64,000 bases of DNA, taken from an uncultured archaeon. Its GTDB lineage: Archaea; Thermoplasmatota; Penumbrarchaeia; JASLWR01. The DNA lies in assembly GCA_964430885.1 (NCBI GenBank), contig CAYSHM010000005.1, positions 1 to 64,000 of the forward strand, written 5' to 3'. Under the pieces are notes generated by a model. That model saw nothing but the letters and a program-made list of their open reading frames with translations, ran no database searches and was not told the DNA's origin. Within the stretch, counting starts at the first letter, position 1. The number at the start of each line of letters is the position of its first letter. Below are positions 15,189 to 53,984 of this stretch, piece after piece. The translations under genes were made by a program, and so were the position numbers.

Positions 15189-15226
15189 TTTGCATACCTC
15201 GGAGATCGTCCAATATATGTGCATAT

Positions 15227-27697: not shown

Positions 27698-28951
27698 ATG
27701 GCGAATAAATCCGACTATAAATTCAAGCATATTTGTCCCAAATGTAAAAAAAAGTACCCTCAAGATCAGCTAGTCTACCAATGTCCATGCGGCAGCAAGG
27801 TAATTATAGAATTCAACATGAACGAGATGGAGCTTTCACCGAAGGATATCAAAGCCAGATATGACAGTAGCCTACCGCTGATAGAGAAATACTTTGAGCT
27901 GCTTCCATTATTGAAGAAGGACAATCTCGTACATTTGGGGGAAGGAGATACTCCTTTAGTTCACGCAAGAAATATGGGAAACAAACTTGGGCTTCCAAAC
28001 CTGTACCTGAAAAACGAGATTAACAATCCAACTGGTTCATTCAAGGACAGACCCATCAATGTAGGATTGAACAGAGCATTGGAATTCAACGCGGAATATG
28101 TTGCTTCAGCTTCCTCAGGTAACGCTGCAAATTCCCTTGCTGCAGGTTCCTCCAAGGCAAACATTACATGTATAGCCTTCGTACCCTCTACAGCGGCTAA
28201 TTCCAAAATTAATCAGCTCCTCCTTTATGGCGCTGAAGTGTTCCCTGTCGAAAAACCTACTGGTTATATAGGTGATCCCACCGTTGCAATGCTGACAAAT
28301 TCATATAAAGAACTGGGATTTCATCCTATACCGAGCTTCGGCCATTTAAATCCATACCAAATGGAAGGAGCAAAGACAATGGGTTATGAGATAGCTTTGG
28401 AGATAGAGCCTGACCATATCGTAGTACCTGTCGGAGGGGGCGGATTATATATGGGAAATCATAGGGCGTTCATGGAATTCAAGGAATTAGGCATTGTGGA
28501 CAATATACCTTCTATGCATGTTGTACAAGGTGAGGGATGTTCTCCTCTGGTGAAGGCCTTCAACGAGGAAAGGGAGATATCCACCTGTGAAGATCCTCAT
28601 ACCATAGCCAATGGCCTTGCGGATCCCTTCACTTGGGACGGTGAACGAGTGATCGAAGCTTTGAAGATAAATGGGGGGAGCGCAGTGGGAATCAAGGACA
28701 ATCCAATAATTAAGGCCCAGAAGATATTGGCAAGATACGAAGGTATTTTTGCCGAACCTACCGGATCTGCGGCATTGGCAGGAATGCTTGAGCTGGTCCA
28801 TAGGGGTAAAATAGACAAGAAGGATGATATCGTTGTCGAGGTCACAGGTCACGGATTCAAGGATTTGGGAGTAATTGACGAATACTTCAGCAGGCCTGAA
28901 CCTGTACTTCCTGAATTGAGCATTATTAAAAATAGACTGGGGTTGAGGTGA
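27698..28951 (+). CDS. thrC: Threonine synthase
   Basis: N-terminal CPKC..CPCG, LGEGDTPL, NPTGSFKDR, ASSGNAA, PVGGGG, EGIFAEP, TGHGFKD. Confidence 0.85.
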   Translation: MANKSDYKFKHICPKCKKKYPQDQLVYQCPCGSKVIIEFNMNEMELSPKDIKARYDSSLPLIEKYFELLPLLKKDNLVHLGEGDTPLVHARNMGNKLGLPNLYLKNEINNPTGSFKDRPINVGLNRALEFNAEYVASASSGNAANSLAAGSSKANITCIAFVPSTAANSKINQLLLYGAEVFPVEKPTGYIGDPTVAMLTNSYKELGFHPIPSFGHLNPYQMEGAKTMGYEIALEIEPDHIVVPVGGGGLYMGNHRAFMEFKELGIVDNIPSMHVVQGEGCSPLVKAFNEEREISTCEDPHTIANGLADPFTWDGERVIEALKINGGSAVGIKDNPIIKAQKILARYEGIFAEPTGSAALAGMLELVHRGKIDKKDDIVVEVTGHGFKDLGVIDEYFSRPEPVLPELSIIKNRLGLR

Positions 28952-29195: not shown

Positions 29196-32100
29196 GTGAT
29201 TAAAATGAATTGGTTTTACAGAATATCGAATCAGAGAGCATCAAAGATCTTATTGATCTCACTATCCTTGGCATTGTTCTTTTTCACATCTTTAGCGCCC
29301 CTAGGCACTATGTGGTCTGATACCGATCACTTGAAGGAAAACTCCAAATCCCATGGTCCAAAATCGTCCGGTGGGGAAATAGATATCCTTGCTGAATCCG
29401 ATGGAGGATTACTCCAGGCACCAGCACATCCTCTGAAAGAAGGGAATCTGAGACGCAGCATCTCGAGACCTTCTCCCACACCGTTTCCTTATCTGGAACG
29501 TTCCGATAACCGTCAGGGGGAGTTCAATCTTCTATGCATTAGGGTCCAATTTCAAGAGGATGATACTCCGCTTACTACTGGTAACGGCCTTATGGAGCCT
29601 GAACACAATGAATATTATTACAATGCCATATTCCAGCAGATGAGCGATTATTATAAAGAGGTTTCCTACGACCAGTTCAACCTAAATGCTTCAGTAACAG
29701 AAGAGATATTCACTGTGGACCACAATATGTCCCACTATGGTTCAAACGGTAATGAGGTGCAGAAGAACGTATATCTGATCAACGATACAATCGCAAAGGC
29801 AGACCCGTCCATTGATTTTTCTCAGTATGATTTCTTCATCGTTATACACGCCGGTTCAGGGGAGGAAACCGATATCAACAACGATTCACCCCACGATATC
29901 TGGTCAAACAATTTAGGTTTGTATCATTTCTGGGCCGTACTAGGCGGGCCCATACAAACAAATGACGGAAAGAGCATAAGTCAGATCAGCGTCATACCGG
30001 AAACCCAGAACCAAGACGGACTTTTCAGTCAGAACATTACTGGAGTGGCATGTCATGAGTTCGGACACAACCTGGGATTACCTGACCTATATGATGTGGA
30101 ATACCACTCGGATGGAATAGGAATTTGGGGTTTGATGTCCGCAGGACCAAATCTCAACGGCGGATTGACCCCTTCTCATTTCTGCGCCTGGTCAAAGATG
30201 TATCTTAATTGGGTAGACCCTATGATTATTGATACCAACCGAACCGATGTTTATATCAGAAATATTGAGGATTACAAGGATATTTACAAGATCGTATTGC
30301 CAGGCTCTAACGGAAAAGAATATTTTCTTCTGGAGAACCGACAGCGGAGAGGATTTGACAGATACCTTCCGGGCGACGGGCTTCTGATATGGCATATTGA
30401 TGAAAATATCATATTTCAGGATGTCGGTTGGGGATTCAACAGGCTTGAAGCAAACGATGTGAACACGTGGCCCAACCACAAGGGAGTGGACCTCGAAGAA
30501 GCCGGAGGAACACAGGAATTGGATATAATTGGAGATTACAACAGCGGAGACCACAGGGACCCATGGTTCGGAAAACCTGAAGGTTTCACTCCTTATACGG
30601 TCCCTAATACCTTCACCTATACCGATATCAATACCGAAATACACATCACAGACATATCCTGGTCATCCAACAACATGTCCTTTTCCGTGAATTTCAAGGA
30701 TAGGGCAATTGATCTTAAAAAGCCCAATATCAATACTACATCAGGGCTGCCAGGAGCTAGTATTTCCTTCCCGCTCCGCCTTTGGTCGAATAGGGCGAGA
30801 GAGAACAGCTATAACGACCGGATAACTCTTACTGTGGAAAGCGACCATTCTGATCTACTAGTATTAAGCCAGAATCCGGCTGAAATACCTTTGGATGCTG
30901 ACAATATCTTCGTCTATGCAAATCTGACCATCCCTTTGGATGCACACTATCAGGACCTGTACATATTCCATATTACCGCCGAATCGCAGGATGATGTTCA
31001 AGCGCCAACTGGGCTCACATTGACTGTAAGTGTTGAAGAGATACTTGAATTTGCACTTTCACCTATTGGGAATATCACACTTCTCCCTGGTGAGGCCAAC
31101 GTTCAAAACATAACGATAGCCTTCAACAACAGTGGAAATGATAGAGAAAGGTTCGATTTCAGCGTTGAACTATCCGATGAGGATTGGGAATGGGAATTGA
31201 GTCAGGAGCGCGTATGGCTGGAGCCGGACTCAGAACACAAAATTTATCTATACCTCTTCTCACCGGATAACTCCATCTTCAGCGATGAATGCGTATTTGA
31301 TATCTTCATGGAGCACTCAACCGGAACCCTTACAACCGGCTTCTCAGCTGAAGTGCTGCAGATATTCAACCTTACCATGGAAGTAGTGGATATAGCTGAT
31401 TATGCGACTCATTCAGACCCTTCCGTTTTGAACATATCTGTCAGAAACTACGGCAACGGTCAGGATAATATTTCAATAAGCCTGACCGGAACCAAGGCAG
31501 GTTGGACAATAGATTTCTCATCTGACTACCTGATAATACCAAGAAAAGGGATCCGATATTTCACCGTGACAATAACTCCTCAAAAACTCGCCCACTACAA
31601 TGATGATTTCCCCTTCACCGTAAAGGTCCACTCACAGGGCGGATTCAGCCTTGAAAGCGAAAATCTGGAAGTGAAGGTCAGCAAATTGGTGCTTCTGGAC
31701 CTAGAATGTGATAACAAAAATATCACATTGAGCACTAAAAAAAATACAGTTCAGGTCACAGTACAGCTATTGAACAAAGGAAATGTTGAGGATTACTATC
31801 AAATGAATGTGGTAATGCCCCCGGATGTTAAAATGAGTCTAGAGGGCATTAACAAGGACAACATTACCATACCTGCTTTCAATGACATCTTCATGGTGAT
31901 GCTGTTCGAATTCCCGGATGATATCACCGCAGGGCTTTATTACATAGATATCGATATTAGCTCAAGCAGACAATCAGACATTACCCTGGAAATGAGGCTG
32001 AACATTACAATTCCAAACATATATGAGCTCCAGGTCGATTTCAGCTCTGACAAGGATGGATTGGACCTATCAAAATCATCCTCTATAAAATATACTATCA

Positions 32101-32783
32101 CCGTTAATAACACTTCAAACCGGAATATCACTGTGATACTTGAGGACATAGGAGAATTAAAGGGATTCAAGATAACCATTCAGCCTAAGGAACTGACGCA
32201 TAAACTTGACATTTCCGAAGGGGGAGAATTCACCATATTGATCAGTTCAACTCCATCCAGTGAAATTAAGAATATCGATTTGTCATTGAAGGTTAGGGTA
32301 TTGGAAAATGGAAAAACCTACTCAGAGGATGAAACACTTAAGGTGACCCGAAGTATAATTACCAACGGGGATGACGATGATGATGATTCTGACAGTGGTG
32401 AAGGAAAAGGAGGATTAATGTCATCATGGATCATCTGGGCAGTAGCTGGAGCGATCTTGCTTTTCATCATCTGCTTGGTTGTTGTATTGGTTATCAAGAA
32501 GGGAAAAAAGAAGGACGAGGAACTTCTTCTAGATGATGAAATTGATGACCCTGGTTCATCGGAGGAAGCAACTGAGACTGAGGAGGTGGAGGTGGCCGAA
32601 GTGGAGATTGCCCCTGACACCCTGGAGATTAAAGAAAACGACGATACTCTCCACGAGGACTTTGCTTCAGAAGAAAATAATATGGTAAAGGCTTCAGATG
32701 ATGAAATAATTGACCAGAAAGAAAATATTTCAGGAAAAGAAGTATCAATACCAAAGCCCAAACCCCCAAAACCCCCTGAATAG
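29196..32783 (+). CDS. M6-family (immune inhibitor A-like) metalloprotease with Ig-like stalk, TM anchor and acidic tail
   Basis: HAGSGEE, HEFGHNLGLPDLYD, WGLMSAG, EYFLLENR, GLLIWHIDE. Signal peptide and C-terminal TM helix. Confidence 0.92.
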   Translation: MIKMNWFYRISNQRASKILLISLSLALFFFTSLAPLGTMWSDTDHLKENSKSHGPKSSGGEIDILAESDGGLLQAPAHPLKEGNLRRSISRPSPTPFPYLERSDNRQGEFNLLCIRVQFQEDDTPLTTGNGLMEPEHNEYYYNAIFQQMSDYYKEVSYDQFNLNASVTEEIFTVDHNMSHYGSNGNEVQKNVYLINDTIAKADPSIDFSQYDFFIVIHAGSGEETDINNDSPHDIWSNNLGLYHFWAVLGGPIQTNDGKSISQISVIPETQNQDGLFSQNITGVACHEFGHNLGLPDLYDVEYHSDGIGIWGLMSAGPNLNGGLTPSHFCAWSKMYLNWVDPMIIDTNRTDVYIRNIEDYKDIYKIVLPGSNGKEYFLLENRQRRGFDRYLPGDGLLIWHIDENIIFQDVGWGFNRLEANDVNTWPNHKGVDLEEAGGTQELDIIGDYNSGDHRDPWFGKPEGFTPYTVPNTFTYTDINTEIHITDISWSSNNMSFSVNFKDRAIDLKKPNINTTSGLPGASISFPLRLWSNRARENSYNDRITLTVESDHSDLLVLSQNPAEIPLDADNIFVYANLTIPLDAHYQDLYIFHITAESQDDVQAPTGLTLTVSVEEILEFALSPIGNITLLPGEANVQNITIAFNNSGNDRERFDFSVELSDEDWEWELSQERVWLEPDSEHKIYLYLFSPDNSIFSDECVFDIFMEHSTGTLTTGFSAEVLQIFNLTMEVVDIADYATHSDPSVLNISVRNYGNGQDNISISLTGTKAGWTIDFSSDYLIIPRKGIRYFTVTITPQKLAHYNDDFPFTVKVHSQGGFSLESENLEVKVSKLVLLDLECDNKNITLSTKKNTVQVTVQLLNKGNVEDYYQMNVVMPPDVKMSLEGINKDNITIPAFNDIFMVMLFEFPDDITAGLYYIDIDISSSRQSDITLEMRLNITIPNIYELQVDFSSDKDGLDLSKSSSIKYTITVNNTSNRNITVILEDIGELKGFKITIQPKELTHKLDISEGGEFTILISSTPSSEIKNIDLSLKVRVLENGKTYSEDETLKVTRSIITNGDDDDDDSDSGEGKGGLMSSWIIWAVAGAILLFIICLVVVLVIKKGKKKDEELLLDDEIDDPGSSEEATETEEVEVAEVEIAPDTLEIKENDDTLHEDFASEENNMVKASDDEIIDQKENISGKEVSIPKPKPPKPPE

Positions 32784-33066
32784 AAAATCATCGATTACCT
32801 TACAATTCAATCATCTAATTATCATTTCATCAAGCATTTTGCTTTCTTATCAGCCCAAGGAATCCTGAAAAAGTCATAATTGAGCAGTTCTTAAATCTTT
32901 AGATAGATAATCCTTTAGGGTTATTCCATACCGCAACAAATTAACGACCATCTAAATTTATTCCTGAAATAATCCGAGGAAATAATTTCGGAATAATATA
33001 CTCAATATTTGATTGCATTTTAAATATTATAAGTGTGATAGAAAATAACTTGTGGAGTGAACATTC

Positions 33067-33996
33067 ATGCTGAACACCGCAACAAAGATAACCCTGGGCA
33101 GATTGATATTGGTTTTCCCTGTCCTCTTCCTGTTGTGGTTCCCGTCATACCGTATAATTGCCATAGTTCTATTTGTGGTCCTTTCCTTGATGGATGCCCT
33201 TGATGGTTATGTTGCCAGAAAGATGGACCAAGTTACCAGGATAGGTACCATACTGGATCCTGTGGCCGATAAACTGACAATTCTCGGTCTTCTGATAATC
33301 CTTCCTCTGATCTATCCTTACTTCCCGATATGGTTCTCATTGATAATTATCGGTAGGGATATAGTCATTGTTTTTGGATGGACAGTGCATTATTATCTTA
33401 CAGGTAATGCAATTATGATCCCCAGCAGATTAGGGAAGATCACCATGTTCATCCAATATACGACCATCAGTGTTGCCGTATTGATGGTTACCCTTTATGC
33501 CTATGATATAGATCCTTTGAGCAACAAGGTTTGGCTGGCTAATTTCATTCTGCTTGCAGTATCGTTCCTTACAATATTTACTTCCGTGGATTACATGTTC
33601 GCCCTTATTCATCATGGTTTTAAAAGTCACCCTGGAACTGTATCTCCAATGGACCTCGTAAAGGATAGGAGGGACCTGAGAAGAGCCAAGAAACGAAAAC
33701 CAATGGCGAGAAGAAGAATAATGAAGCATGTATACAAAAAGCGGAAGGAAGCGAAAGACCTTCCTCTGTATAAAGCTATCCTAATTGAGAATTTCCCAAA
33801 AAGACGTGTATGTCAGATATGCCAGGGAACTATGAGAAAGACCAGCGTTCTCAGATGCAGATGCGGCAGGTTTTTCCATAATGAATGTATTCAGAAGACT
33901 ATTGGGGAATGCCCCAGATGCGGAACCGTCATGCACCTTGATAAAAAAAGAATACCCAAAGAAGACATAATAAAAGGTCTGCTTAGAACTAGCTAA
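33067..33996 (+). CDS. CDP-alcohol phosphatidyltransferase (PgsA-like) fused to a C-terminal C4HC3 RING-like finger
   Basis: Intact signature DALDGYVARKMDQVTRIGTILDPVADK. C-terminal CQIC..CRC..H..C..CPRC. Confidence 0.88.
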   Translation: MLNTATKITLGRLILVFPVLFLLWFPSYRIIAIVLFVVLSLMDALDGYVARKMDQVTRIGTILDPVADKLTILGLLIILPLIYPYFPIWFSLIIIGRDIVIVFGWTVHYYLTGNAIMIPSRLGKITMFIQYTTISVAVLMVTLYAYDIDPLSNKVWLANFILLAVSFLTIFTSVDYMFALIHHGFKSHPGTVSPMDLVKDRRDLRRAKKRKPMARRRIMKHVYKKRKEAKDLPLYKAILIENFPKRRVCQICQGTMRKTSVLRCRCGRFFHNECIQKTIGECPRCGTVMHLDKKRIPKEDIIKGLLRTS

Positions 33997-34074
33997 ATAT
34001 TACAATAAGTCATCAGAATAAATATCCACATCTCCAATAGTAATTCAATTAACACAGAAAACGAGAAATATCTA

Positions 34075-37000
34075 TCAAGGCTGGGTCCTATCATTGCCGT
34101 ATATAGAATATCGGGTCCTCTCCCCGGATTTATTAATTTCTAATCCTTCATCCGGTTCTGAGTGATCTTTGGTGTTCTTTGTTTTTTGAAAACTGTCATC
34201 CCTGTTTGAAGAGTACATACCGAAATCGCTTCTTTTTCTTCTCCGCACATATAAGACAGCTAGAATCACACACAGAATCAGTACTAAAGCACAGGATATT
34301 ATCAATAACCAAAATGTCGATTCCACAAACCTTCCGGTCCTTCCATCAAGAAGGTTTTCAAGATCATCATCCAATTCACCCGGGGCGGAAGTGTTTTTAT
34401 TATCATTATCGGACCCAGGCAGCACTACAATATCCCTTATTAAACCGTATTCAAATCCTACAAATCCAAGAAGGGCCATCACTTTAAATTCGCCTGAATC
34501 TATTGGGGTGAAGTTCCAGTTAGCACCACCTTCAAAAGCATAATTAAACCTGCCCGTATCCGAAGCAATCAGGAACCATTTAACATATTGAGGTTTGGGA
34601 AAAGTACCATTGCAGTGAAGTTCAACTCGAACCTGACTACGCTTAGGTACTATACTGCCTGGTTTCAAGCTAAGATACCATTTTTCGTCCCATTCTTCCT
34701 TTGATAAAATTGTAATGTTCCGCTGGAGAATAATATTGACATCTTCTTCTCCCAAGAGGCCGCTTATTATGACTGTAATGTTGTAATTATCCGGTTTTGC
34801 CAGAGATAAAGTTATCGAGCCCCCATAATATTCATTGACAGTAGCACCTAATCGAACCTTCCATGTGAAATTACATTCGGCGGAATCCAAGGCGGATAGA
34901 TCTGATCGATTTATTAACACCGCACTGCAGTTGAAGGATCTATCTTCCAGACCGTAAGAGGGGCTGAACATTTCACCAATAATCCCGGGTTCGGACTCTC
35001 CAATAACTTGGACCAAATATCGGGCTATAGAAATTCCAGGAGGGCGCCAATCAGTGCCTTGGTCTGTGACATTCAATTGAACCAAAAATGAACCCTTGAA
35101 AGGAAAGCTGTAAGATAGATTCTCATTTATAATTGGACCCGCAAAGAAACAATGTGCATAAAGCTCATGGAACTCCTCGTTAAACAGAGAGATGGAGCCT
35201 GAAACATTGAAGATCCACCATGTAAATAGGAGCTGGTTGGATTCAGCATCAGCAGCTTCGGGCTGACACTTATGTAGGTCACCTACCTTAATAGTAACAT
35301 TCTCCAATTCCAATATCTCCGGAGGGGAATTCTCTGGAGCCTCTTCTATCCTGAATGAGAAGGGGGGCGAGGGGATTTGGGTTCCATTTTCATCTGTAAC
35401 CTCAACCATCCATTCATACTCATGACCAGTCCATAGATATTCAGGGGAGATATAGTGAGAACATTCATGGACCACATTGGGGGGATTCAAAGCTGAATAT
35501 GTGAAGTTATCAGTGTGGATAGAGAACCATTCTGGAAATTCCGCATGTAGATCATACAGATAGATCTCAACATGAAGATCATCACCATCCGCTTCCTCTA
35601 AATTATAATCCAGCTGGATCCCCGTCTGAGATACTGTATAGGGAAGTACTGCATCAGTTAATGGCGATTCGAGTGTTACGGAAGGCGGATAATCCACATC
35701 CACACGGAAGGTCCTAATCTCTGATTGAACCTGAACCTGCTGTCCATCTTCCCTCACATCCCTTACTTCCAACCACCATTCATACCAATTGGCATCATCC
35801 AGAGGGCTGGAGATGGTCAAGTTCAGACTGTCAGCTATATGATCGTGATCGGGACCTATCAAAGGTATGGGCCCGCTATCTGCCGTAGAGCCGAGTTGCA
35901 TTTTTCTCCAGAACAAATTTCCCGTGATATTGTCCCCGTCATGATCTATAACATCAAACTCAAGGGCCGGTGTCAGATCCTGGAATTCTATCCCATCCGC
36001 TGTGAGGAGATCGGTTACCGGAGGCCTGTTGGACATTTCTGTAAGATTGTTCTTCACATAGATATTGCTGGATTCGCCGGTGTCGTTGTGCGATGAGAAG
36101 ACAAGCCAAGTGGTTCCGTCTGAACACGGCATGGTAGCAGGGGATGCGTCATCGTCCAGGGATTCGGTCAGTAGGCATCCATCATCCATCAACCTGCTGT
36201 TTCTTTCAGAATTCAATTGGGTGAAATAAATATCACCGTTGGATTTGCCATCGATAGTCCTATCTGAATAATAGAAAAGCCTCGCCGATCCGTTAATTTC
36301 ACCAAGGGCCGGATCCTGAGACCCATGCTTAGAATCAACCAACCTGGTCGGTGCTTTCCAATCGCTCCATCCGGGTGAAGATGTTCCGAAAACCTCTTTT
36401 TTTCCATTCGGACCTGTTGACTGTGCCCAGAGTATCCACAGCATGCCATCCTCGGTCTGATAGTTATATGTCCCGTCCACATGAGAAAGAGTATCGCTGA
36501 CCTTGGTGGGATCATTGAAGGATTGTCCGTTATTGACTGAATAACTGAAATAAACTCCATTATCTGCACCGTCCATTGAAAAAACGCACCAGAGGGTTCC
36601 GTACCTGGTGCGGTGAAGATTTGGGTCCATGTGATTTGAACCAGGGAAAAGGTCCGTGATCATCTGCTCTTCACCCCATGAAGCACCGCTGTCTGTCGAA
36701 AGCCTGTAGCATACCCGCCATTTATCGTTAATTTTTCCCTGGTATGAAAGGACCCAAGTTCCATCATTGGATTGGGTAAAGGTTGGCGAGGCAATCTCAT
36801 CAAGCTGAGCCGTGAGCAGCGTCTCCGGGGTGCTCCAATTCTGGCCTCTGTCTCCGCTGATAGTCATTAAGATACTGCTCTCACCTTGAGATCGTTCAAG
36901 CCAAACAAGACATATATCACCATTGTCCAATTCAGCAACATCCGGTTCCAGGCTGTCAGCTTCTGTTGGGAATACCTCGGTCAGCATATGATCCACAAGG

Positions 37001-37932
37001 GGCAGGTCCAAATCCGGTCTTTCCAAGCCGTAGTAATCGAATATCCCGAAGAACATTCCTCTCCCGGCTGACTCCTTGAAGCTATCCTGATGGAGAAGCT
37101 GGTTATCGTCGTAATTGTCATGAAAGGCCACTTCTACCAAACATCCCGGCATATTCGTTTCCCTGAGAACGCACAAAGAGAAACCACAAATATCCTCATC
37201 CTTCAGAACCCCCCGATCCTGTGTTCCGCATTCCGCCACAAGGGGAGGATGAATATCATTGGCCAAAGCAAGATCCGCCGAGGGTGAACCACCGCCTGTG
37301 CCCGTATCCTGGCCGCCCCATATGGTCATTGTCCCTCTGGCTGACCCACCTCCTGCATTTGTATGGATGGATATGAATATGTCCCCGTTGACCTGATTTG
37401 CATATTCAGGGCGGATTGTGAGATCCTGATTGAGAGAACCAAAGCCTGAATAGCCCATTGCACCTCTTAGGTGACACCAGGCTCCCTCCTGCCATTTCGG
37501 CTGTCCGGATATACCGATGCTTGCATTCTTGTCCAGTTCCCTGGTCACGTGCAAGTTAGCTCCTGTGTGTTTATCAAGATAATCAAAAAGATAGGATGCT
37601 ATTTCAACTGTGAGCTCATCCTCCACAAGACCCCAGCAGTCCGGACGCTGATATACCCAGGAATTCCCGTTGTAATAGAGACCATGCCCCGGATCAATGA
37701 CAATGTCAATTCCATCCAGTGGTAAAGCGCGAACACTACACAGAGCCGGCGGGGATCCAGAGTAGAGGACGTAGGCATCGGTATGTAAACCTTTTTGAGG
37801 GAATGACGATGCAAGAAAAAAGAAAATTAAGATTAAAGAAATAAGCAAGCTGAGAGGGCATTTGCATTCCTTGGGTGATCTAATGGGCCTTAATATATGA
37901 GATATGAAAGAAATAATGTATTTTCTCATCAA
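34075..37932 (-). CDS. N-acetylmuramoyl-L-alanine amidase (Amidase_3) + BNR/sialidase-like propeller + Ig/PKD stalk + TM anchor
   Basis: IVIDPGHG, EDELT, DIFISIHTNA, VLRETNMPGCLVEVAFHDN. Asp-boxes SGDRGQNW, STDSGASW, SVNNGQSF. TM helix followed by RRRKR. Confidence 0.88.
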   Translation of the reverse strand: MMRKYIISFISHILRPIRSPKECKCPLSLLISLILIFFFLASSFPQKGLHTDAYVLYSGSPPALCSVRALPLDGIDIVIDPGHGLYYNGNSWVYQRPDCWGLVEDELTVEIASYLFDYLDKHTGANLHVTRELDKNASIGISGQPKWQEGAWCHLRGAMGYSGFGSLNQDLTIRPEYANQVNGDIFISIHTNAGGGSARGTMTIWGGQDTGTGGGSPSADLALANDIHPPLVAECGTQDRGVLKDEDICGFSLCVLRETNMPGCLVEVAFHDNYDDNQLLHQDSFKESAGRGMFFGIFDYYGLERPDLDLPLVDHMLTEVFPTEADSLEPDVAELDNGDICLVWLERSQGESSILMTISGDRGQNWSTPETLLTAQLDEIASPTFTQSNDGTWVLSYQGKINDKWRVCYRLSTDSGASWGEEQMITDLFPGSNHMDPNLHRTRYGTLWCVFSMDGADNGVYFSYSVNNGQSFNDPTKVSDTLSHVDGTYNYQTEDGMLWILWAQSTGPNGKKEVFGTSSPGWSDWKAPTRLVDSKHGSQDPALGEINGSARLFYYSDRTIDGKSNGDIYFTQLNSERNSRLMDDGCLLTESLDDDASPATMPCSDGTTWLVFSSHNDTGESSNIYVKNNLTEMSNRPPVTDLLTADGIEFQDLTPALEFDVIDHDGDNITGNLFWRKMQLGSTADSGPIPLIGPDHDHIADSLNLTISSPLDDANWYEWWLEVRDVREDGQQVQVQSEIRTFRVDVDYPPSVTLESPLTDAVLPYTVSQTGIQLDYNLEEADGDDLHVEIYLYDLHAEFPEWFSIHTDNFTYSALNPPNVVHECSHYISPEYLWTGHEYEWMVEVTDENGTQIPSPPFSFRIEEAPENSPPEILELENVTIKVGDLHKCQPEAADAESNQLLFTWWIFNVSGSISLFNEEFHELYAHCFFAGPIINENLSYSFPFKGSFLVQLNVTDQGTDWRPPGISIARYLVQVIGESEPGIIGEMFSPSYGLEDRSFNCSAVLINRSDLSALDSAECNFTWKVRLGATVNEYYGGSITLSLAKPDNYNITVIISGLLGEEDVNIILQRNITILSKEEWDEKWYLSLKPGSIVPKRSQVRVELHCNGTFPKPQYVKWFLIASDTGRFNYAFEGGANWNFTPIDSGEFKVMALLGFVGFEYGLIRDIVVLPGSDNDNKNTSAPGELDDDLENLLDGRTGRFVESTFWLLIISCALVLILCVILAVLYVRRRKRSDFGMYSSNRDDSFQKTKNTKDHSEPDEGLEINKSGERTRYSIYGNDRTQP

Positions 37933-38038
37933 TATATTTCATCTCCAGGGGTTTTCAATTCACCGTCACATTATTCAATCCAAAAACCAATATTATCATT
38001 ATCGAATAAAAAAATATTGACCCTTGTTCTATATCTAT

Positions 38039-38566
38039 CTATAGGTCATTTTCAAACACAAACATTCCATTTTCAAGTCTTCGGCATTTTTTCCAGGGTA
38101 TCACACGAGCGTTCATAGCCACATATACTCCGGGCCTCATTGACCTAACAGCACCCACGGCCATACCCAGGTTGAAGGATGCTTCGCTTCCCTTGAAGCG
38201 CTCCGGTAGAAAGGAACCTGTTAGAATTATGGTTTTTTTCTCCAAACTGCTCAAAACCTGAGCTGTATCGAGAATGGAATCTGTACCATGGGTGATAATG
38301 AAATGATTAGATTCACTCTCATGGATGAAATCTCTAAGTTCGATCCGATCATCTAGGGTCATATCCAGGCTGTCCTTCTGGAACATCATAAAATATTGGA
38401 AGTATCCTGCCGGTGCATTCACCTTACCGAGTATTCTCTCAAAAGCCGGTTCGGTAATAAGGAATGAATAACCCCCTTTTTTCAATGGATAATCCTTATC
38501 TATTGACCCACCGGTTTGAATGAGAACTATCTTATCGATGTTTTTATTGAAATTGGTCCCGCACAT
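38039..38566 (-). CDS. Short asparaginase-domain protein
   Basis: TGGSIDKDY, KDSLDM, ITHGTDS, ILTGS, ASFNLG. ATG 38566 has a GGTGG SD. Confidence 0.85.
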   Translation of the reverse strand: MCGTNFNKNIDKIVLIQTGGSIDKDYPLKKGGYSFLITEPAFERILGKVNAPAGYFQYFMMFQKDSLDMTLDDRIELRDFIHESESNHFIITHGTDSILDTAQVLSSLEKKTIILTGSFLPERFKGSEASFNLGMAVGAVRSMRPGVYVAMNARVIPWKKCRRLENGMFVFENDL

Positions 38567-38737
38567 GACAAACACCACCTGACACAATTTTAGATACAAA
38601 GAGGAATTATTATTTCAGCCTTAATAAAATATTGCCCTTGAAACCCTTATTTGACTATCTGATAAAGGCAGAAATTCTATATATATGTAGTTCTTTTCTA
38701 AAAAATACAATTTTTAAAAAATGCTGTTGGTGTTGAC

Positions 38738-41700
38738 ATGGCCAGTAAAAAAAAGCATCTGAAAAGATTTCTTAAAAGCAAGAAAAGCACGTTATTGAAA
38801 GCCTCGGTGATCCTAATCACTGTGATATTCCTTTCCCTATTGATCCCTGAAAAGGTCGGTATAAGGGAATACCAAAGCAAGATCATCAGGCATAGACCGG
38901 ATACCCGACTTGATGAAAGAACTGCAGAGGATCCTGGAAATGGAGGGATGCTACCCTATTTCCATTATGTGGACAGCAGTGTAAATACCGCAAACGGAAA
39001 CTTATTCATTTCTGAGAACGATATCTCTCGGCCCTCACTCCCCCAGGCATTGACTTTCAGCAGGTCCTACAATTCCATGAACTCCCTGTCAACTACATCG
39101 GTTGGTTACGGATGGACCCATTCTTACAATTCATATCTCATGCCGGAAGAAGGTATGGTCACCCTATTCAGGGAAGATGGGGCAGTGTTCAGTTTCAATG
39201 AGAACGGTACTGAATTCGATACTCCGCCTGGACTTGATGCCTTATTGACCAAGAACGGCACAAATTTTCTTCTGATGTACAAGAATGGAATGACCTTCAC
39301 CTATGACCGCAACGGCGTTCTGAGGAACCTTTACGATCGGAGCGGGAATAAACAGAACCTCAACTACAAGGACGATGTTCTAACACATGTCAAGGACATT
39401 AATGAACAGTCCCTTGAATTCAGCTATGACGCAAGTTCAAGGCTTATCAAGGTGAGCGACGGGACCAGAGATGTCACATTCGAGTACGACGGAGGGGGAC
39501 GGCTGATCAAGGCAACTGATGCATCGGGCAACTCTACAAATTACTACTACGGCCCTAACAACCAGCTGAAGGTAAGAGAGGATAGAAGGGGCAAAGCCGT
39601 TTATTATGAATATGACCAGGACAGCAGAGCCTATGAGATAGGTAAAGCAGAAGGCGATCTTCTCTTCAAATCCCAGACAAGCCATTATCTGAAATATTCA
39701 ATATCCTATGTCGAATCTGGGGCCGAATTGACCAATGCCATGGGACATGTATGGAATATCAATCTCGATACAGATGGCAGGATTTCAGGCATAACCGATC
39801 CTTTGGGATACGGCACCACAGTGACATTCGATGAGAATTGGAATGTTGATTCAGCAGAGGACCAGATGGGCAGTACCCAGCATTTCGAATACGATAATTA
39901 CAACAATATGGTCACCTGGACCGATCCCCTTGGTAATGCAAAGGCCTATACTTATGAAATGTTCACAGTGGATTTCTATTACTGCCCCCCTGCCACAATG
40001 ACCGACGAGAACGGCAAGACCTGGACCTACAGCTACAACTCCCAGGGCCGGCTTCTTGAAGATAAGGACCCAAGCGGCAATTCAACCCTGTACACATGGA
40101 CAGAAAACGGGCTTCTGGAGAGCATCACCTATCCTACCGGTGCCCGGACCGATTATGAATATGACAATTCAGGCAATCTTATCAGCACAGCAATGCCCAA
40201 CGGACTGTTGGTGGATTATTCCTACGATTCCCTTGGCAGAATGATCAAGCAGAAAAAGGGAAACCGGGTAACGACTCACTCATACGACCTGAACAATCGA
40301 CTTTACAGAACCAATTACCCTGACAACAGCTATGAGGTTTACGAATACGACGCCCTTGGCACAATTATCAAGAAGAGAGATCAGAACGGCGGGATCCATG
40401 AATATGACCACGGGGAGAAGGAGGTAATAATTGAAGAGGTTTTGAACGGAACGGAGATCTACAATGCCAGGGTGAACAAGATTGGAGATATTCAGAAGGA
40501 GCAGAACGCCAACGGGGACATCACCTCCTATTATTATGACCCAATGGGAAGACTGACCATGATAAAGTATCCTGATAAGACCTATGACAGTTTCAGCTAT
40601 GATGGTGCCGGCAGAATGACCTCGGCAAAGGACCAGATGGGTTTCACAACCACCTATGAGTACGATGCAATTGGGAGGCTGGAAACCGAGAGGAACCACC
40701 TGGGAAGCACTGTAACCTACAGCTATGATGCAGCAGGGCGCATGACCGGGTTCAATGATCTGAATGGAGGTCAGTGGACCTATGAATATGATGCAGTGGG
40801 CAATATGATCAAGGAAACCGACCCAGCTGGATACTCCCAGAACTATACCTATGACGCTGTGGGAAACCGCATCTCCCGGGAGGATAAGAACGGTAACATG
40901 TGGGAGATGGAGTATGACGGGATGAACCTTATGACCGAGATGAATCATCCAGACGGCGCTGTGGAAAGCTGGTCCTATGATCTATACGGTGATGTTACTG
41001 AGCATGTGGATGCCGATGGAGAGAGATGGGAATTCGAGTACGACAGCATGGGCAACATGATCAAGGAAATAGACCCCCTGGGCAATTTCAAGGGCTACAG
41101 CTATGACAGGCTGGGAAATATGCTGTCCTACAGGGATGAGAGAGGAAACAGAATAAGATACCAATATGATGATCTCGGAAACATGATTTCAATAACCGAT
41201 CCCCTTGGACGAATCACCGAATACGAGTACGACGGGGAGGGAAACATCATCGAGATGGAAAGGCCCGACGGGGAGGAGTTCACCTTCACATACGACAGTT
41301 TCGGAAGGGTTCTTTCACAGAAAACCCCCTGGAGAACCCTGAGTTACGGATATGATGCAGGAGGAAACCTCATCTCAAAAACCGATCCCTGCGGGAATGC
41401 GGTAAGAATGGAATATGATCACAACGGATTGATCCTGAAATACACCGACGAGGAGGGGTATTCAAGCAATTACAGATATGATTCCGACGGAAATCTCATT
41501 AGGTATGATGACCGCAAGGAAGGCATTCACTGGTGGGAATACACAAGGGATGCAGTGGGCAGGGTTACCATGGTGGAGGATCCTGCCGGGAACAGCTGGA
41601 GATACAGCTATGACGGCGAAGGCAATATAGTAAGGATAGTGGATGCAGCGGGCAATCCTGCCAGCTACAGCTATGACCATATGGGGAATATCCTATCGCA

Positions 41701-50100: not shown

Positions 50101-51932
50101 TTCTTTCTGCAGCTGATTGGGGAATTGGCGTTGACCATATCTGGTACTCAAAGGATGACGGATCCACATGGATGACCTATACGGGACCCATCCATTTCAG
50201 CGGTGACAGCATACTGATAGGGGCAATTGACAAGTTGGGCAACAATGAAAGTGCCAGAAAGATAATGCTCATGAGCGACAATACTGCTCCTGACACCTCC
50301 TATTCCATATCTGGCAATATCATAGGCCGTTCACCCTTGATCGTGGAATCAGGAAGCAAGCTTCAGCTGCGGGCTTCCGACAACAGCCAGATCAAAAGTA
50401 TATGGTATACCTTGGACGGGACAAGTTTTCATACCTACCAGGGACCAATTGATCTAATTGACAATATCTCAATAATCTACGGTGCAGTTGATATATTCGG
50501 CAATAACGAAACAGGCAAAAGCCTGGAGATAGGTGTCAGAAATAATGTGGCCTCTGCTCCATTTGTTATATCGGTTTCACCCTCACCCGGGTCCACTTCA
50601 ATACCTGTACTTCCAAGGATAGTTGTCAAGTTCAGCAGGACAATGAACACCAGTTCTGCTGAAAAGGCCTTTTCAATGGACGTCCCCGGGTCCTTCAGCT
50701 GGGATGCATCTGAACGGAACATGACCTATATTCTGGGTGAAGAACTGGGTTACAAATGCTTCTATACCATTGTGGTGTCAAAGGAGGCAATGAGCCCTCC
50801 TGGAAATAAAATGGTAGCGGATTTCATCTGGAGGTTCCAGACCAAGGAATATTCCGGCGGGGACAGTATGCAGACATTCACAGATTCCCTAGCAGTGGGT
50901 GAAGGGCTCGCCCTTAATGCAGAATACAGTGCCCTAGGAAAGATCATTCTGGAACCCTTGGCCAGGTCTGAGATAGGGAGCACCTACCCTTCACCGGCAG
51001 CGGATATGATGCTATTGGGAGCCTGGTTGGCACAGCCTACTCCTGGAAACGCTTTGGAGCATATGGATCTCAGTGTGGATTATGCCAACCTAAATGCACC
51101 GTCCCTGGATATGAACAATGTCAGCATCTACTATTTCGACGGTGCCAGCGAGACATGGGAAGAATGTTCCTCATTGAGCAATGATCCTGCCAGCGGTGTT
51201 GTTGAAGGAAGGGGGACTGAATTCTCCGCCTATGCAGTATTGACAAATCTCAAAGGCAGTTCTGGCAACGGTAGCCAGCCCTCTGGATCTGACCTCGATC
51301 CAATACTTGAAACCTCAAAGGACGATAAGAGTTCATACACTGGACTGACCATAGTTGTAATAGTAGTGACCCTGATCTTACTTGTCATTATGTTCTTTGT
51401 GCTGTCCAGAGGGGGAAAGAAGGAGGGGAGCGATTACGAGGAAGAATTTGAGGAGGACGCTGATGAGAAGGATGATGGACAAGAGGAGATCCTGGAAGAA
51501 GAGGTAGAGGACGAGGAGGGTTTTGAGGAAGGTGTGGAGAAAGAACGACTTGGAGAAGATGATGACGGGGAAGCTGTAGAGGTTCAGGAGGGATTTGTGA
51601 AGGAGGCGAACCCGGAAGTAGAAGAGGCAGGCAAAAAAGAGGAGGGGAATGATATGGAAGCTGAGGAAGGGGGGACGGCAGAGGATGAAGATCAGTCTGC
51701 AGAGGTAGTAGAACCTGCTGAAGTCGAAGAGGAGGAGGCGCAGGGGGAATCGGAGAGTGAAGCCGCTGAACCGGCCAAGGTAGATACAGCTGATGAAATT
51801 GTTGAAGAACCTAGAAAAGAATCCCCCGAGGAAGTTCCAGGTCAAAAGGACAAAAAAGCTGATCCGCTCACTGATGAAGATGATGACGAATTCGATGAGC
51901 TGTTGTCAGATCTGGACATGGACGATTTCTAA
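47184..51932 (+). CDS. Large adhesin-like surface protein: beta-helix/NosD, five OmpL47-like Ig repeats, Big_5-like domain, TM anchor, acidic tail
   Basis: GDGSPGNPYVIEN, GGNYWDNY..DGFGDTP..DNYPL, repeated IWYSLDG..Y.G.F..A.D..GNNE, VISVSPSPGST..VKFSRTM. ATGA overlap with the upstream gene. Confidence 0.88.
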   Translation: MRPNKGIKNLFNISFISIVLLISGLAVGLYPLISEFGTAELADPGNLAPHSVIDITSDAGFNQSNGVTHGDGSPGNPYVIENLSIDAGGGNGISISATSANYVIRNCHVYNATGYGIHLIPSSGNVSVMNCDINNTQDQALRMIGTVDNFLMDRIDVWNIHNGDGIYINPNAEKVMLENITSTNTSGVAFNLQGNVMEYSMKNINIHNVSNDRGIYSYNYEQNGKFIVNNITINKTSSDGAYLYVANKDFIGDRINLLNLPSGWGFYIQGNWGEESATLSNVYVYNFTSGEYAVYVTSFRNAHIDNMTVIDMAEIGAYALNIYDIDNGNITVRDFYGDNCRDGLRIYYCDNANIDLKRIDITETFRGFYINDCDGSQVLFNNIMLTEYSYHGIALSGMDDATVTVINSEFVGVGGFSGDGAISSSFGNDYTNYIIDNFTARDHYWYSIDLDLDQGSNVSITNSTFRNIGSYGGINIDGDYDPSYVNSTISNCLFDTMNTPIYLRNHISSVHNNKMENVGSDAMEVNKMDGSVLYENTIQNASNNWQGRGIEVVSTENITIKGNTILDMITGIRVWEGCRNNRIYNNVFLANELNAQDQTLGNNSWNATYGEGGGNYWDNYTGVDDFSGEGQNEAGADGFGDTPFTELLNIVDNYPLMNIPIWLDTFYPVSELNTTNDTYIKWENGSFVMYFIPDVTVFTIEAMDYGSGVEHIWYSLDGLTYQEYSGEFTLEAGAENLYFRAEDFNNNNESLHHMILKGDGDEPILEPALGLPNHMDGDDIFVRNSTEINFKAVDEGAGLDRIEHSLDGGSTWVEFPGLFSIENSISDYMIRAVDMLGLTAAKTYQLVVDSSKPLTDIAIDHYLGEDPRYVRSYALVTLEAADDGLSGNGSGIGKIWYSLDGGQRFETYNGSFHLPAWCHQVYYGALDNVGNNETGSLLDVFVDNEDPVTSIRALGDYYLTENKLYMTDNDTLLLSAADWGIGVDHIWYSKDDGSTWMTYTGPIHFSGDSILIGAIDKLGNNESARKIMLMSDNTAPDTSYSISGNIIGRSPLIVESGSKLQLRASDNSQIKSIWYTLDGTSFHTYQGPIDLIDNISIIYGAVDIFGNNETGKSLEIGVRNNVASAPFVISVSPSPGSTSIPVLPRIVVKFSRTMNTSSAEKAFSMDVPGSFSWDASERNMTYILGEELGYKCFYTIVVSKEAMSPPGNKMVADFIWRFQTKEYSGGDSMQTFTDSLAVGEGLALNAEYSALGKIILEPLARSEIGSTYPSPAADMMLLGAWLAQPTPGNALEHMDLSVDYANLNAPSLDMNNVSIYYFDGASETWEECSSLSNDPASGVVEGRGTEFSAYAVLTNLKGSSGNGSQPSGSDLDPILETSKDDKSSYTGLTIVVIVVTLILLVIMFFVLSRGGKKEGSDYEEEFEEDADEKDDGQEEILEEEVEDEEGFEEGVEKERLGEDDDGEAVEVQEGFVKEANPEVEEAGKKEEGNDMEAEEGGTAEDEDQSAEVVEPAEVEEEEAQGESESEAAEPAKVDTADEIVEEPRKESPEEVPGQKDKKADPLTDEDDDEFDELLSDLDMDDF

Positions 51933-52016
51933 AAATAGATGAAATTCCCAATACCAAATTCAATAGCCGCACCGGGGTCGCTATTGATCCCAAGCTTATC
52001 GATGATAGTACTAATC

Positions 52017-53984
52017 TTAGTTATCATTGGCCCCATTATGCCAGGGGTCATAGTTAGGCTGGGTCTCCAGGGGTATAGCAGGCCTGAAAGCCGGGTCCCC
52101 GTACATTGTGAAGAAGGTTACCTCTCTCCAGTCAACAGTGTCCTTGGGTTCAAAGGGAGTCGGACTGTTGTTGGGACCATAGGCCATGTACCTGTTCTCG
52201 CACCATTGGACCGCCTTCCCAGCAGTTCCGTGTTCTTCAGGATGGTTGAGTATACCGTCCCAGACAAAGGCATACCAGGCATCGTTGTGATCCCATTTGT
52301 GGTCGTCCTCGATTAAGCCGTATTCTGCCCGAAGAGCGGGTATGTCCTGTCCTATGTTGGAGTAGCTTATCTCTGTGGCCCCTATCAATACGGCGGGTCC
52401 TGCTGAAAGGTAGTTAAGTGTGAAAAGGTTCTCGAAATTGACATCGCTCTGGGGCTGGGTGCCGGGCCCGTGACCGTAGATCTTACCGTTAAGGCATGAG
52501 ACAAAGAAAGCTATCTGAGGCGGGACATTCATGGTCTGGCAATCCCCATACCTAAGTGCGTGCTCATCCCCATTTGGTCCTCTCACCCTTATGCCGTAAA
52601 GAGAACCAGTATCCGAACCATGGCCTCTATAAGCTACGTATCCAGATCCCTGGCATATCTCTATGATATTGGTCTCTTTGGAATCCACAACACCGTCGGC
52701 CAACTTGACCCCCGTTCCCGAGGGACCCCAGTAATCATAAGTGAAACCGGCATCATCATAGTCCTTGCAGATCCATCTTGCAGGGGTAGCCTGCATCCTC
52801 TTGTAGGTAATATCATAACCTGAAAAGGAGGCCCCGTGCGTCCGCCAGTTCTTTTCATGAGGTCCTCCGGCAATATCCCTGTAGTTTACCGGCACTGTAT
52901 CGGCAAAATCCTCAATAAACAGTGATTTGGAAAGCTGATTGGAAGCAAGAGATGCATCAAATTGGATCAGTCGGCCCACGGCAGCATCCTGAGTGTAGGG
53001 GTCATCATCAAGAAATCCGTATATAATATCAGAATTGGTGATCTCACCCTGGCCGCCTATCTGGGTCAGGAATTGTGGTACTGCAGAAGCACTGCCTACA
53101 ATACATACATATTCAGCAGGGCCATACATTGAAGAAACCTTTCTGATCATGTCATAATATCCCATTGCACGCCTGTTCTGGGATAACTCCATATTTAGGG
53201 TCCAATCAACCTGCTGGATGGGAGGTGCGTCGGTTATGACGAAGGCGTCGTGATGGACCGCCAGCTCTCCGGTCAAAACCGATAGAGCGGGACAGAACCA
53301 GGCATCATCGTAGGAATCGTAATCCGGTGTGCTCTGGTTTAGATGTTTAAGGGAAACATCAAAGGGATTGGTAGCGATAATGTAATTGGCTGGAATGCCT
53401 AGGGCTTTCATTTCCTTCCAGGCTGATTCCTGATCAGGATATGTCATTCTGCCGGATATGAGGGCCATGTTGGTGTTCTTGGCTACTGCGGTGGCCCAGA
53501 GTGCTTCGGAATATGATGAAACAGTGATAACTCCGTCAAACCCTATGAAATTGGACACTGCATTCGATGTGAGTGGCAGATAATGCTCTTCTTTGACTGG
53601 AGATAAACCCGCTTCTGAAAGCTGGGAGTTCACTGAATTGAATAACGCTTCTGAATTTACAAACAACAATTTAGCCCGGTCAGTTTTCCAATTGGTCAGT
53701 GTGTATATCTGCTGGGATGATAATTTCCCCTCCTGGTCAAGGATCATGAAGGGATTGTAAACTTCACCCCTGTTTATAAGTGAACTGAGACAGGCTACAG
53801 AAAGCATGTCATCGGGGTTCTTGGGATATTCAGTTATGACCATATAATCCGAAGGGAGCTCTATTGTTGGCTGATATAGGGGCCTGTCTTCTTCTTTAGG
53901 CTGGGAAAAATAAAATATCAATCCTCCGGTAACCAGTACAGACACCAGGGCTACAGCTGTAATTTTCTTGTATTTGGCGTTCAA
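52017..53984 (-). CDS. C25-family (gingipain-like) cysteine peptidase with N-terminal membrane anchor
   Basis: YVCIVG..VP, SDIIYG, AVGRL, YRGHGS (His), FVSCLNG (Cys), MYGDP. TTG start with AGGAGG SD. Confidence 0.8.
   Translation of the reverse strand: MNAKYKKITAVALVSVLVTGGLIFYFSQPKEEDRPLYQPTIELPSDYMVITEYPKNPDDMLSVACLSSLINRGEVYNPFMILDQEGKLSSQQIYTLTNWKTDRAKLLFVNSEALFNSVNSQLSEAGLSPVKEEHYLPLTSNAVSNFIGFDGVITVSSYSEALWATAVAKNTNMALISGRMTYPDQESAWKEMKALGIPANYIIATNPFDVSLKHLNQSTPDYDSYDDAWFCPALSVLTGELAVHHDAFVITDAPPIQQVDWTLNMELSQNRRAMGYYDMIRKVSSMYGPAEYVCIVGSASAVPQFLTQIGGQGEITNSDIIYGFLDDDPYTQDAAVGRLIQFDASLASNQLSKSLFIEDFADTVPVNYRDIAGGPHEKNWRTHGASFSGYDITYKRMQATPARWICKDYDDAGFTYDYWGPSGTGVKLADGVVDSKETNIIEICQGSGYVAYRGHGSDTGSLYGIRVRGPNGDEHALRYGDCQTMNVPPQIAFFVSCLNGKIYGHGPGTQPQSDVNFENLFTLNYLSAGPAVLIGATEISYSNIGQDIPALRAEYGLIEDDHKWDHNDAWYAFVWDGILNHPEEHGTAGKAVQWCENRYMAYGPNNSPTPFEPKDTVDWREVTFFTMYGDPAFRPAIPLETQPNYDPWHNGANDN

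Follow-up and report, generated by a model that had tools for sequence, protein, structure and literature searches.

Do the large exported proteins encoded within a single 25-kb stretch of an archaeal contig form one system for attacking and digesting bacteria, or do they merely lie side by side? The stretch (positions 29,196 to 53,984) belongs to a 64,000-nucleotide sequence, hereafter the window, which comprises bases 1-64000 of contig C5 (CAYSHM010000005.1) in the genome of an uncultured Thermoplasmatota archaeon of the lineage Penumbrarchaeia (GCA_964430885.1; G000). The original prediction, made from the sequence alone, was that an M6 metalloprotease, a peptidoglycan amidase, a YD-repeat protein, two long adhesin-like proteins and a C25 peptidase combine adhesion, wall lysis, membrane permeabilization and proteolysis. 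Our data favor a different explanation, to which we give a probability of roughly 0.6, namely that the stretch is a patchwork and not one system, and that it includes a membrane-tethered amidase that would act by contact.

Gene content, linkage and contig integrity

All six genes are real and intact, as confirmed by their open reading frames (ORFs) and profile matches. The M6 metalloprotease (29196..32783, forward strand, 1195 amino acids; PF05547 and TIGR03296 above cut-off) has as its upstream neighbor a threonine synthase-like gene, thrC (27698..28951, forward; TIGR00260 above cut-off), and is followed by a CDP-alcohol phosphatidyltransferase with a C-terminal zinc finger (33067..33996, forward; PF01066). 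The reverse strand then carries the tethered Amidase_3/BNR protein, an N-acetylmuramoyl-L-alanine amidase of 1285 amino acids (34075..37932; Amidase_3 and BNR_2 profiles), and a short asparaginase-like gene (38039..38599; PF00710) which has a paralog on contig C3. Three forward-strand genes follow, encoding the secreted YD-repeat protein of 1965 amino acids (38738..44635; PF05593, PF20148), a type I membrane protein of 851 amino acids with a PKD domain and an acidic tail (44632..47187; PF00801), and a type I membrane protein with a beta-helix, OmpL47-type barrels and an Ig-like domain (47184..51932; PF13229, PF13205, NF047446), with 4-nucleotide overlaps between the YD stop and PKD start and between the PKD stop and beta-helix start. 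The C25 (gingipain-family) peptidase (52017..53984; PF01364) lies on the reverse strand. The amidase and YD genes are divergent, with starts 806 bp apart and the asparaginase-like gene as the single small gene between them. Hydropathy places an N-terminal hydrophobic stretch on all six proteins and a C-terminal membrane helix on the M6, amidase, PKD and beta-helix proteins, with none on the YD or C25 proteins; the anchoring proposed earlier thus holds for the M6 protease and the amidase, and for the C25 peptidase comes down to the N-terminal stretch.

In three relatives from the same family (G001, G002 and G003; 88-93% complete) these genes do not stay together. Each relative has one amidase ortholog (42-45% identity over 1,074-1,209 amino acids) and one M6 ortholog, always on different contigs (amidase on G001:C109, G002:C8 and G003:C21; M6 on G001:C125, G002:C17 and G003:C23). 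All three keep the thrC-M6-phosphatidyltransferase block, with thrC orthologs 66-68% identical, and in all three the gene after the phosphatidyltransferase matches a surface protein on contig C20 of G000, not the amidase. The neighbors of the amidase differ by genus and none best-matches a window gene (at least 9 kb downstream was read in each). The YD gene was not found in the three relatives, the window C25 peptidase has no reciprocal ortholog there (the best copies in the relatives share 69-71% identity with a paralog on C1 of G000 and 42-43% with the window copy), and the PKD and beta-helix proteins have domain-level partial matches, the latter in two of the three; the asparaginase-like gene has a 40% match in one relative, away from its amidase contig. 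Across 61 genomes, M6 was found in 16, amidase and YD occur together in two (G000 and G005), and all three occur jointly in G000 only. It is very likely that the 25-kb stretch is not a conserved unit, and the checks on synteny and co-occurrence suggested with the original prediction both went against it.

The base composition changes within the stretch. GC content at third codon positions (GC3) is raised from the YD gene onward (38.7-54.6 kb; 0.58, 0.53, 0.53, 0.52 and 0.53 vs 0.47), and the YD value of 0.58 is at the 97th percentile among surface genes. The simplest history is one of rearrangement and gain in the G000 lineage, the gain being, we infer, a recent one. Neither a transfer RNA gene nor boundary repeats were found in the window, and for that reason we refrain from classing the YD operon as mobile; tblastn searches against phages and plasmids gave no match.

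The patchwork explanation also draws on the genomic background, because no other type of gene in this genome is as common as those for large surface proteins. Among 1,964 ORFs called with a simple caller (at least 90 amino acids), 259 are surface-like proteins of at least 600 amino acids under a hydropathy rule; they occupy 31% of genome bases, and 227 of them have a C-terminal anchor. The stretch contains a run of six surface genes in eight, and a run of that density turned up at some point of the genome in 542 of 5,000 gene shuffles (P 0.11), in 401 of 1,000 adjacency-preserving simulations (P 0.40; observed adjacency 54/252) and in 201 of 1,000 length-aware shuffles (P 0.20; the script for the latter scored the real genome at 5, against a direct coordinate count of 6, because gene overlaps were set to zero). 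Under all three nulls the clustering is within chance. M6, Amidase_3 and YD are each represented in the genome by one locus and C25 by ten, and 19 matches there cover the PKD protein in part.

The contig is archaeal and shows no chimera over 33001-53000. G000 (3.13 Mb, completeness 91.6%, contamination 1.4%) carries on contig C5 an archaellum operon (window 62786-64000 and G000:C5:64481-81530) with arlJ, I, H, G and F, two archaellins and flaK; in a scan of 15 chosen proteins beyond the window, ArlI and ArlH scored above cut-off, whereas ArlJ, ArlF, ArlG, the archaellins and FlaK gave profile matches below it. The archaeosine genes ArcS and RaSEA are on the same contig, RaSEA above cut-off. 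The two archaellins, each of 223 amino acids, have identical scores, and a gene for a 1615-residue surface protein and arcS lie between them and flaK. The 'pilus' genes reported nearby consist of one ATPase/TadC-like pair (57162-61158), and the remainder, from 62786, is the archaellum operon. Close homologs of the amidase carry the source name 'Thermoplasmatota archaeon', from which the phylum was assigned, and the public runs containing window DNA are labeled marine metagenome. From one of these (X1), a 68.8-kb contig spans 33001-53000 at an even depth of 21.3, missing a single copy of an 81-bp sequence that is duplicated in tandem where the PKD gene encodes its acidic tail (46792-46953); the difference reflects either assembly collapse or a length variant. 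The contig from run X2 is consistent with the window up to 46836, and short pieces from runs X3 and X4 fall in 28 and 23 of 30 bins, respectively, nearly all of them at 99% identity or more. This check covered 33001-53000, X1 and X2 are possibly the window's own source and all four runs come from one study, so that it excludes a gross chimera yet provides no independent confirmation.

The tethered amidase and its possible use of peptidoglycan

The amidase consists of a signal peptide, an Amidase_3 head (residues 77-297), a BNR propeller-like region (346-535), a stalk and a membrane helix (1209-1227). The head scores 86.9 bits against a cut-off of 27 (PF01520) and matches the solved amidases Cwp6 (5j72), CwlV (1jwq) and CwlD (7rag), with which it shares the His-Glu-His ligands and catalytic Glu; the catalytic residues were aligned to Cwp6 and CwlV, and zinc ligands and catalytic Glu (H83, E104, H190, E267) are invariant in all nine sequences. 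In a protein atlas it matches bacterial Amidase_3 clusters at 0.88-0.89. Identity to eight homologs is highest in the head, at 74-78%, drops to 41-46% in the BNR region and, for the stalk, stands at 30-38% and 25-27%, a gradient that points to strong selection on the enzyme. Of 301 genomes of the phylum, 12 were found to have Amidase_3; all four family genomes are among them, each with a single copy.

In contrast to CwlV, Cwp6 and CwlD, for an activity that is here predicted, the window amidase has an archaeal type I membrane architecture and a head insertion of about 45 residues near the second zinc ligand (motif TRELD...G.SG...W.EG). Two genomes of the class, G005 and G008, share the insertion, as do a protein named Thermoplasmata archaeon and three others, one of them named Planctomycetota, and in other genomes of the class the insertion-type head is found in tandem with an ordinary Amidase_3 or in one frame with NlpC/P60. 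Motif columns alone were used for these comparisons, the amidase tree being poorly resolved with many outer rows that are partial domains.

Judged by its sequence, the amidase is catalytically intact as well as surface-tethered, so the wall lysis foreseen in the original prediction is plausible as a predicted activity, and we consider it likely that bacterial peptidoglycan is the substrate. The wall of an intact Gram-negative cell is beyond the reach of a tethered enzyme, and for this reason wall debris, or bacteria without an outer membrane, would be likelier targets; debris is altogether more plausible than live cells.

Archaeal peptidoglycan hydrolases as such are already published (Strock et al., 2025; PMC12352652). 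That survey reports modular peptidoglycan hydrolases in 175 of 3,706 archaeal genomes, counts Thermoplasmatota as one of the phyla in which such genes abound, and describes a haloarchaeal hydrolase that was shown to kill bacteria. A modular hydrolase is defined there by a catalytic domain plus a Pfam cell-wall-binding domain; the window amidase, with only Amidase_3 and BNR_2, fails this definition, and because a wall-binding domain is demanded, tethered amidases of this type would fall outside the survey as so defined (PMC12352652). The likeness to Woldo and Danwoldo of Halogranum salarium is that a secreted peptidoglycan-cleaving domain is found in an archaeon making no peptidoglycan, but those two are described as soluble proteins with an M23 or glucosaminidase domain, PG_binding_1 and a patchy spread (PMC12352652), whereas the window Amidase_3 is membrane-anchored and long-stalked, has no known wall-binding domain and is present in four of four family genomes. 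No earlier description of a tethered archaeal amidase was found in the open-access literature.

A screen of G000 with thirty Escherichia coli protein queries, in which the controls FtsZ and NadC were found, detected no clear peptidoglycan-synthesis genes (weak MurE- and Ddl-like matches only) and no SecA; the screen is insensitive, because AmiA missed the window's own amidase. It did find PepD (41.5%) and a DadA-like oxidoreductase, and an Asp/Glu racemase is present in all three relatives; these proteins could use stem peptides. Matches to PF01168 in the family were rejected as alanine racemases, since frames of about 240 amino acids are by their length read as YggS-like. The amidase looks active and appears to stand alone, which would suffice for stripping of stem peptides, and no full wall-digesting or sugar-recycling set was seen in the genome.

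Elsewhere in the class, G005 (fragmented, 980 contigs) encodes giant surface proteins with tandem Amidase_3 domains (L088, L089, L090; C100, C243) and, in one frame, NlpC/P60 plus an amidase, together with a 363-residue match of alanine-racemase size, two Asp/Glu racemases and two strong enolase-family matches. As a possible feeder on peptidoglycan it is a far stronger candidate than G000.

The YD protein and its helical tail

The YD protein begins with a hydrophobic stretch, followed by a DUF6531 plug (residues 81-153; PF20148, E 2e-15), a YD shell to about residue 1450 (PF05593, E 5e-148), a divergent plug-like region, a linker and an all-helical tail (residues 1685-1965; 43790..44632, forward strand) for which there are six homologs. 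The plug, the long shell and a C-terminal domain predicted to be helical are as in Rhs and WapA toxins, and the N-terminal export signal is like that of WapA. The WapA/Rhs-like identity suggested earlier nevertheless fails at the defining core. The RHS-associated core TIGR03696 is absent from all seven tail-family proteins and present in three of three control YD proteins of the same phylum, there is no DPxG motif after the last repeat of the window protein in place of the DPxG-x18-DPxG pair of Rhs toxins, and three of the six homologs have a single unpaired one. Lacking both core and protease motif, the protein is by defining motif no member of the Rhs/WapA group. In Rhs1 and Tse5 the paired DPxG motif cuts off the toxin (PMC8636562, PMC10684867), and cleavage at it is essential for toxicity in the pore-forming Tse5 (PMC10684867). 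A further possible difference from Rhs toxins is that no small immunity gene is seen behind the window gene, the overlapping gene for the 851-residue PKD membrane protein being directly downstream, and that the tail, among the matches found, is conserved across distant taxa and not polymorphic.

A HMMER scan with residues 1501-1965 gave seven matches besides the query, six of which are YD proteins or fragments with both the divergent plug and the tail in common (E 1e-84 to 2e-5; all found using the tail). The seventh, P0054, a repetitive protein without YD repeats, was dropped. One homolog is named as a Kariarchaeaceae archaeon (Asgard) and a cluster mate of another as a Thermoproteota archaeon. 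No copy of the tail turned up in 300 other genomes of the phylum, word-indexed searches for it and for the same plug with other tails returned the query alone, and metagenome scans yielded no tail-family locus and one ordinary YD locus (27% over the repeats only). No earlier description of the tail was found in the open-access literature.

The tail has an acidic first helix, an invariant Cys1805, a cationic amphipathic helix (1825-1890), a hydrophobic hairpin-like motif and a Trp-rich end. The description of the tail as cationic and amphipathic applies to the 1825-1890 stretch (+15), but not to the whole of residues 1685-1965, whose net charge is -2, and the cationic moment of the stretch, ranked 26th of 1,964 proteins, is notable, not unique. 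Structural models are helical and too weak to use (mean predicted local distance difference test score 40.5 for plug plus tail, 45.0 for the tail alone); Foldseek gave no match at E<=0.001, all protein atlas matches to the tail were below 0.8, and a PDB profile search returned nothing beyond one weak coiled-coil match. DUF445, the best Pfam match in six of the seven members (best E 1e-5) and not in the window protein, was rejected as reflecting a generic amphipathic helix. From these features the YD protein may act like a carrier of a membrane-acting toxin, yet it is not a canonical Rhs toxin, and the idea that the tail is itself a membrane-damaging toxin is a tentative one that we hold to be somewhat doubtful.

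Other YD proteins of the phylum are built differently. That of G014 (L040:8713-13485; G014:C55) is secreted, combines the canonical RHS core with paired DPxG motifs and ends in a short tail rich in Cys and Trp, its gene being followed by two co-oriented genes for secreted proteins; it has a better claim to be a true archaeal Rhs toxin. Those at L038 (G060:C10), L039, L044 and L043 run into PKD, choice-of-anchor J or membrane-anchor modules, and in G060 the YD gene is followed by one for a protein partly like the window beta-helix protein (27% over 515 amino acids).

Proteases and other genes in the window

The M6 protease has a signal peptide, the motif HEFGHxxGxxD at residues 287-297, a stalk and a C-terminal membrane helix (TIGR03296, 167.9 bits vs 110.8). 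The C25 peptidase (PF01364, 71.7 bits vs 23) has an N-terminal signal or anchor, and His455 and Cys497, which we take to be its dyad, lie within the expected motifs. Secreted C25 peptidases are known and expressed in Thermoprofundales/MBG-D, where they are read as serving detrital protein use (PMC6461988); the window copy is likewise a secreted gingipain-family C25 in Thermoplasmatota, and as one of ten in its genome shows nothing specific. Both proteases fit general protein scavenging.

Elsewhere in the window, a 1088-residue protein (1366-4632, forward) and the phosphatidyltransferase (33067-33996, forward) have C-terminal RING-like zinc fingers (weak Pfam matches, below cut-off). On the reverse strand are genes for a protein that is secreted, anchored at its C-terminus and endowed with a squalene-hopene-cyclase-like helical domain (8189-9766; PF13243) and a presenilin-like intramembrane protease whose long cytoplasmic loop has a zinc-ribbon-like Cys pattern (24743-26185), as well as a saccharopine dehydrogenase gene in tandem with a lysine-ketoglutarate-reductase-like gene (13824-16570), syntenic in G002 and presumably a route of lysine catabolism.

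Discussion

A single locus for adhesion, lysis, permeabilization and proteolysis is not upheld by our data, given that the genes are unlinked in all three relatives, that the C25 peptidase is one of ten and that the YD protein fails the Rhs core test. As we reconstruct the patchwork, a conserved housekeeping block holds M6, the family's amidase gene would have moved in beside that block, and the three-gene YD-PKD-beta-helix operon and an extra C25 copy are found only in G000. The amidase would be exported, held by its C-terminal membrane helix and raised on its long stalk, where its zinc site would cleave the MurNAc-L-Ala bond of any bacterial peptidoglycan that it touches, and the stem peptides released would feed a metabolism based on amino acids. 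The YD protein would stand apart from this as a secreted shell protein of recent gain. Its helical tail probably binds membranes or disturbs them, and the protein, being without the Rhs protease motif, is probably displayed uncut.

Several observations weigh against this explanation. The six-in-eight run is the densest of 1,676 in the genome, and the sole amidase and sole YD gene lie one small gene apart in divergent orientation, a closeness of two named genes that is rare a priori (about 4 in 1,964, a post hoc estimate). The comparison includes only three relatives, and surface proteins were assigned by a hydropathy heuristic and not by SignalP. With respect to feeding on peptidoglycan, G000 gave no clear match to MurQ, AnmK, NagZ or NagB with the E. 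coli queries, nor one for a dipeptide epimerase, an Asp/Glu racemase was not found there, and profiles for PG_binding_1, LysM, M23, NlpC/P60, SLT and GH3 found none of these in the four family genomes. The amidase protein has no known wall-binding domain by Pfam, and its conserved insertion could alter the substrate.

In another explanation nothing is directed at bacteria: the amidase would have turned to a different N-acyl amide, perhaps in the cell's own surface glycans or in particle polymers, and the YD protein would serve in adhesion or self-recognition, as other YD surface proteins of the class would. The absence of a wall-binding domain, and of the six other wall-enzyme and wall-binding families from the family, would agree with this, as would a steady single-copy inheritance that is unlike the patchy distribution described for weaponized hydrolases (PMC12352652), a tail conserved across distant taxa, and the fact that several YD proteins of the class terminate in PKD domains or anchors. 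However, the catalytic residues are all kept, the best solved matches are peptidoglycan amidases, and the insertion-type head recurs in a Planctomycetota-named protein and, within the class, beside Amidase_3 or NlpC/P60, so that we consider this explanation unlikely. A broader alternative, in which this marine, archaellum-bearing family feeds on bacteria by contact through a genome-wide arsenal, as opposed to one locus, with the stalked and tethered amidase opening their walls, and in which the YD protein represents a new class of secreted shell proteins, shared with Asgard archaea and without the Rhs self-cutting protease, that delivers a conserved membrane-damaging helical domain by another route, seems to us quite improbable.

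We also find it hard to credit a narrower version of the original prediction, an attack module of recent origin and confined to this lineage, with shared regulation of the amidase and the divergent YD operon, where prey would be held by the PKD and beta-helix proteins, permeabilized by the tail and digested by the proteases. The closeness of the only amidase and only YD gene, the 4-nucleotide overlaps among the YD, PKD and beta-helix genes, the +15 amphipathic helix, an archaellum operon on the same contig and the reported ability of archaeal wall hydrolases to kill bacteria (PMC12352652) would all suit such a module; but the linkage occurs in none of the three relatives, amidase and YD coincide in two of 61 genomes and with M6 in one, M6 lies within a housekeeping block, the eight genes change orientation four times, and there is neither an Rhs core nor a small immunity-like gene downstream of the YD gene. 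Bacterial contamination or an assembly chimera, which the chiefly bacterial character of Amidase_3 and YD repeats and the elevated GC over 40-53 kb might suggest, can largely be dismissed in view of the archaellum and archaeosine genes on the same contig, the evenly covered X1 contig and the amidase and M6 orthologs in all three relatives.

One consequence concerns the genome itself, where several large anchored proteins in a row belong to the background and give no ground for naming a locus. With the core-less YD subfamily comes an unnamed tail domain whose range takes in Thermoplasmatota as well as Asgard archaea. Whether archaeal wall hydrolases serve to kill or to scavenge is a question left open in the published account (PMC12352652), and since the tethered amidase would act by contact only, is family-wide and is invisible to a survey that looks for wall-binding domains, it would provide a direct and cheap test case.

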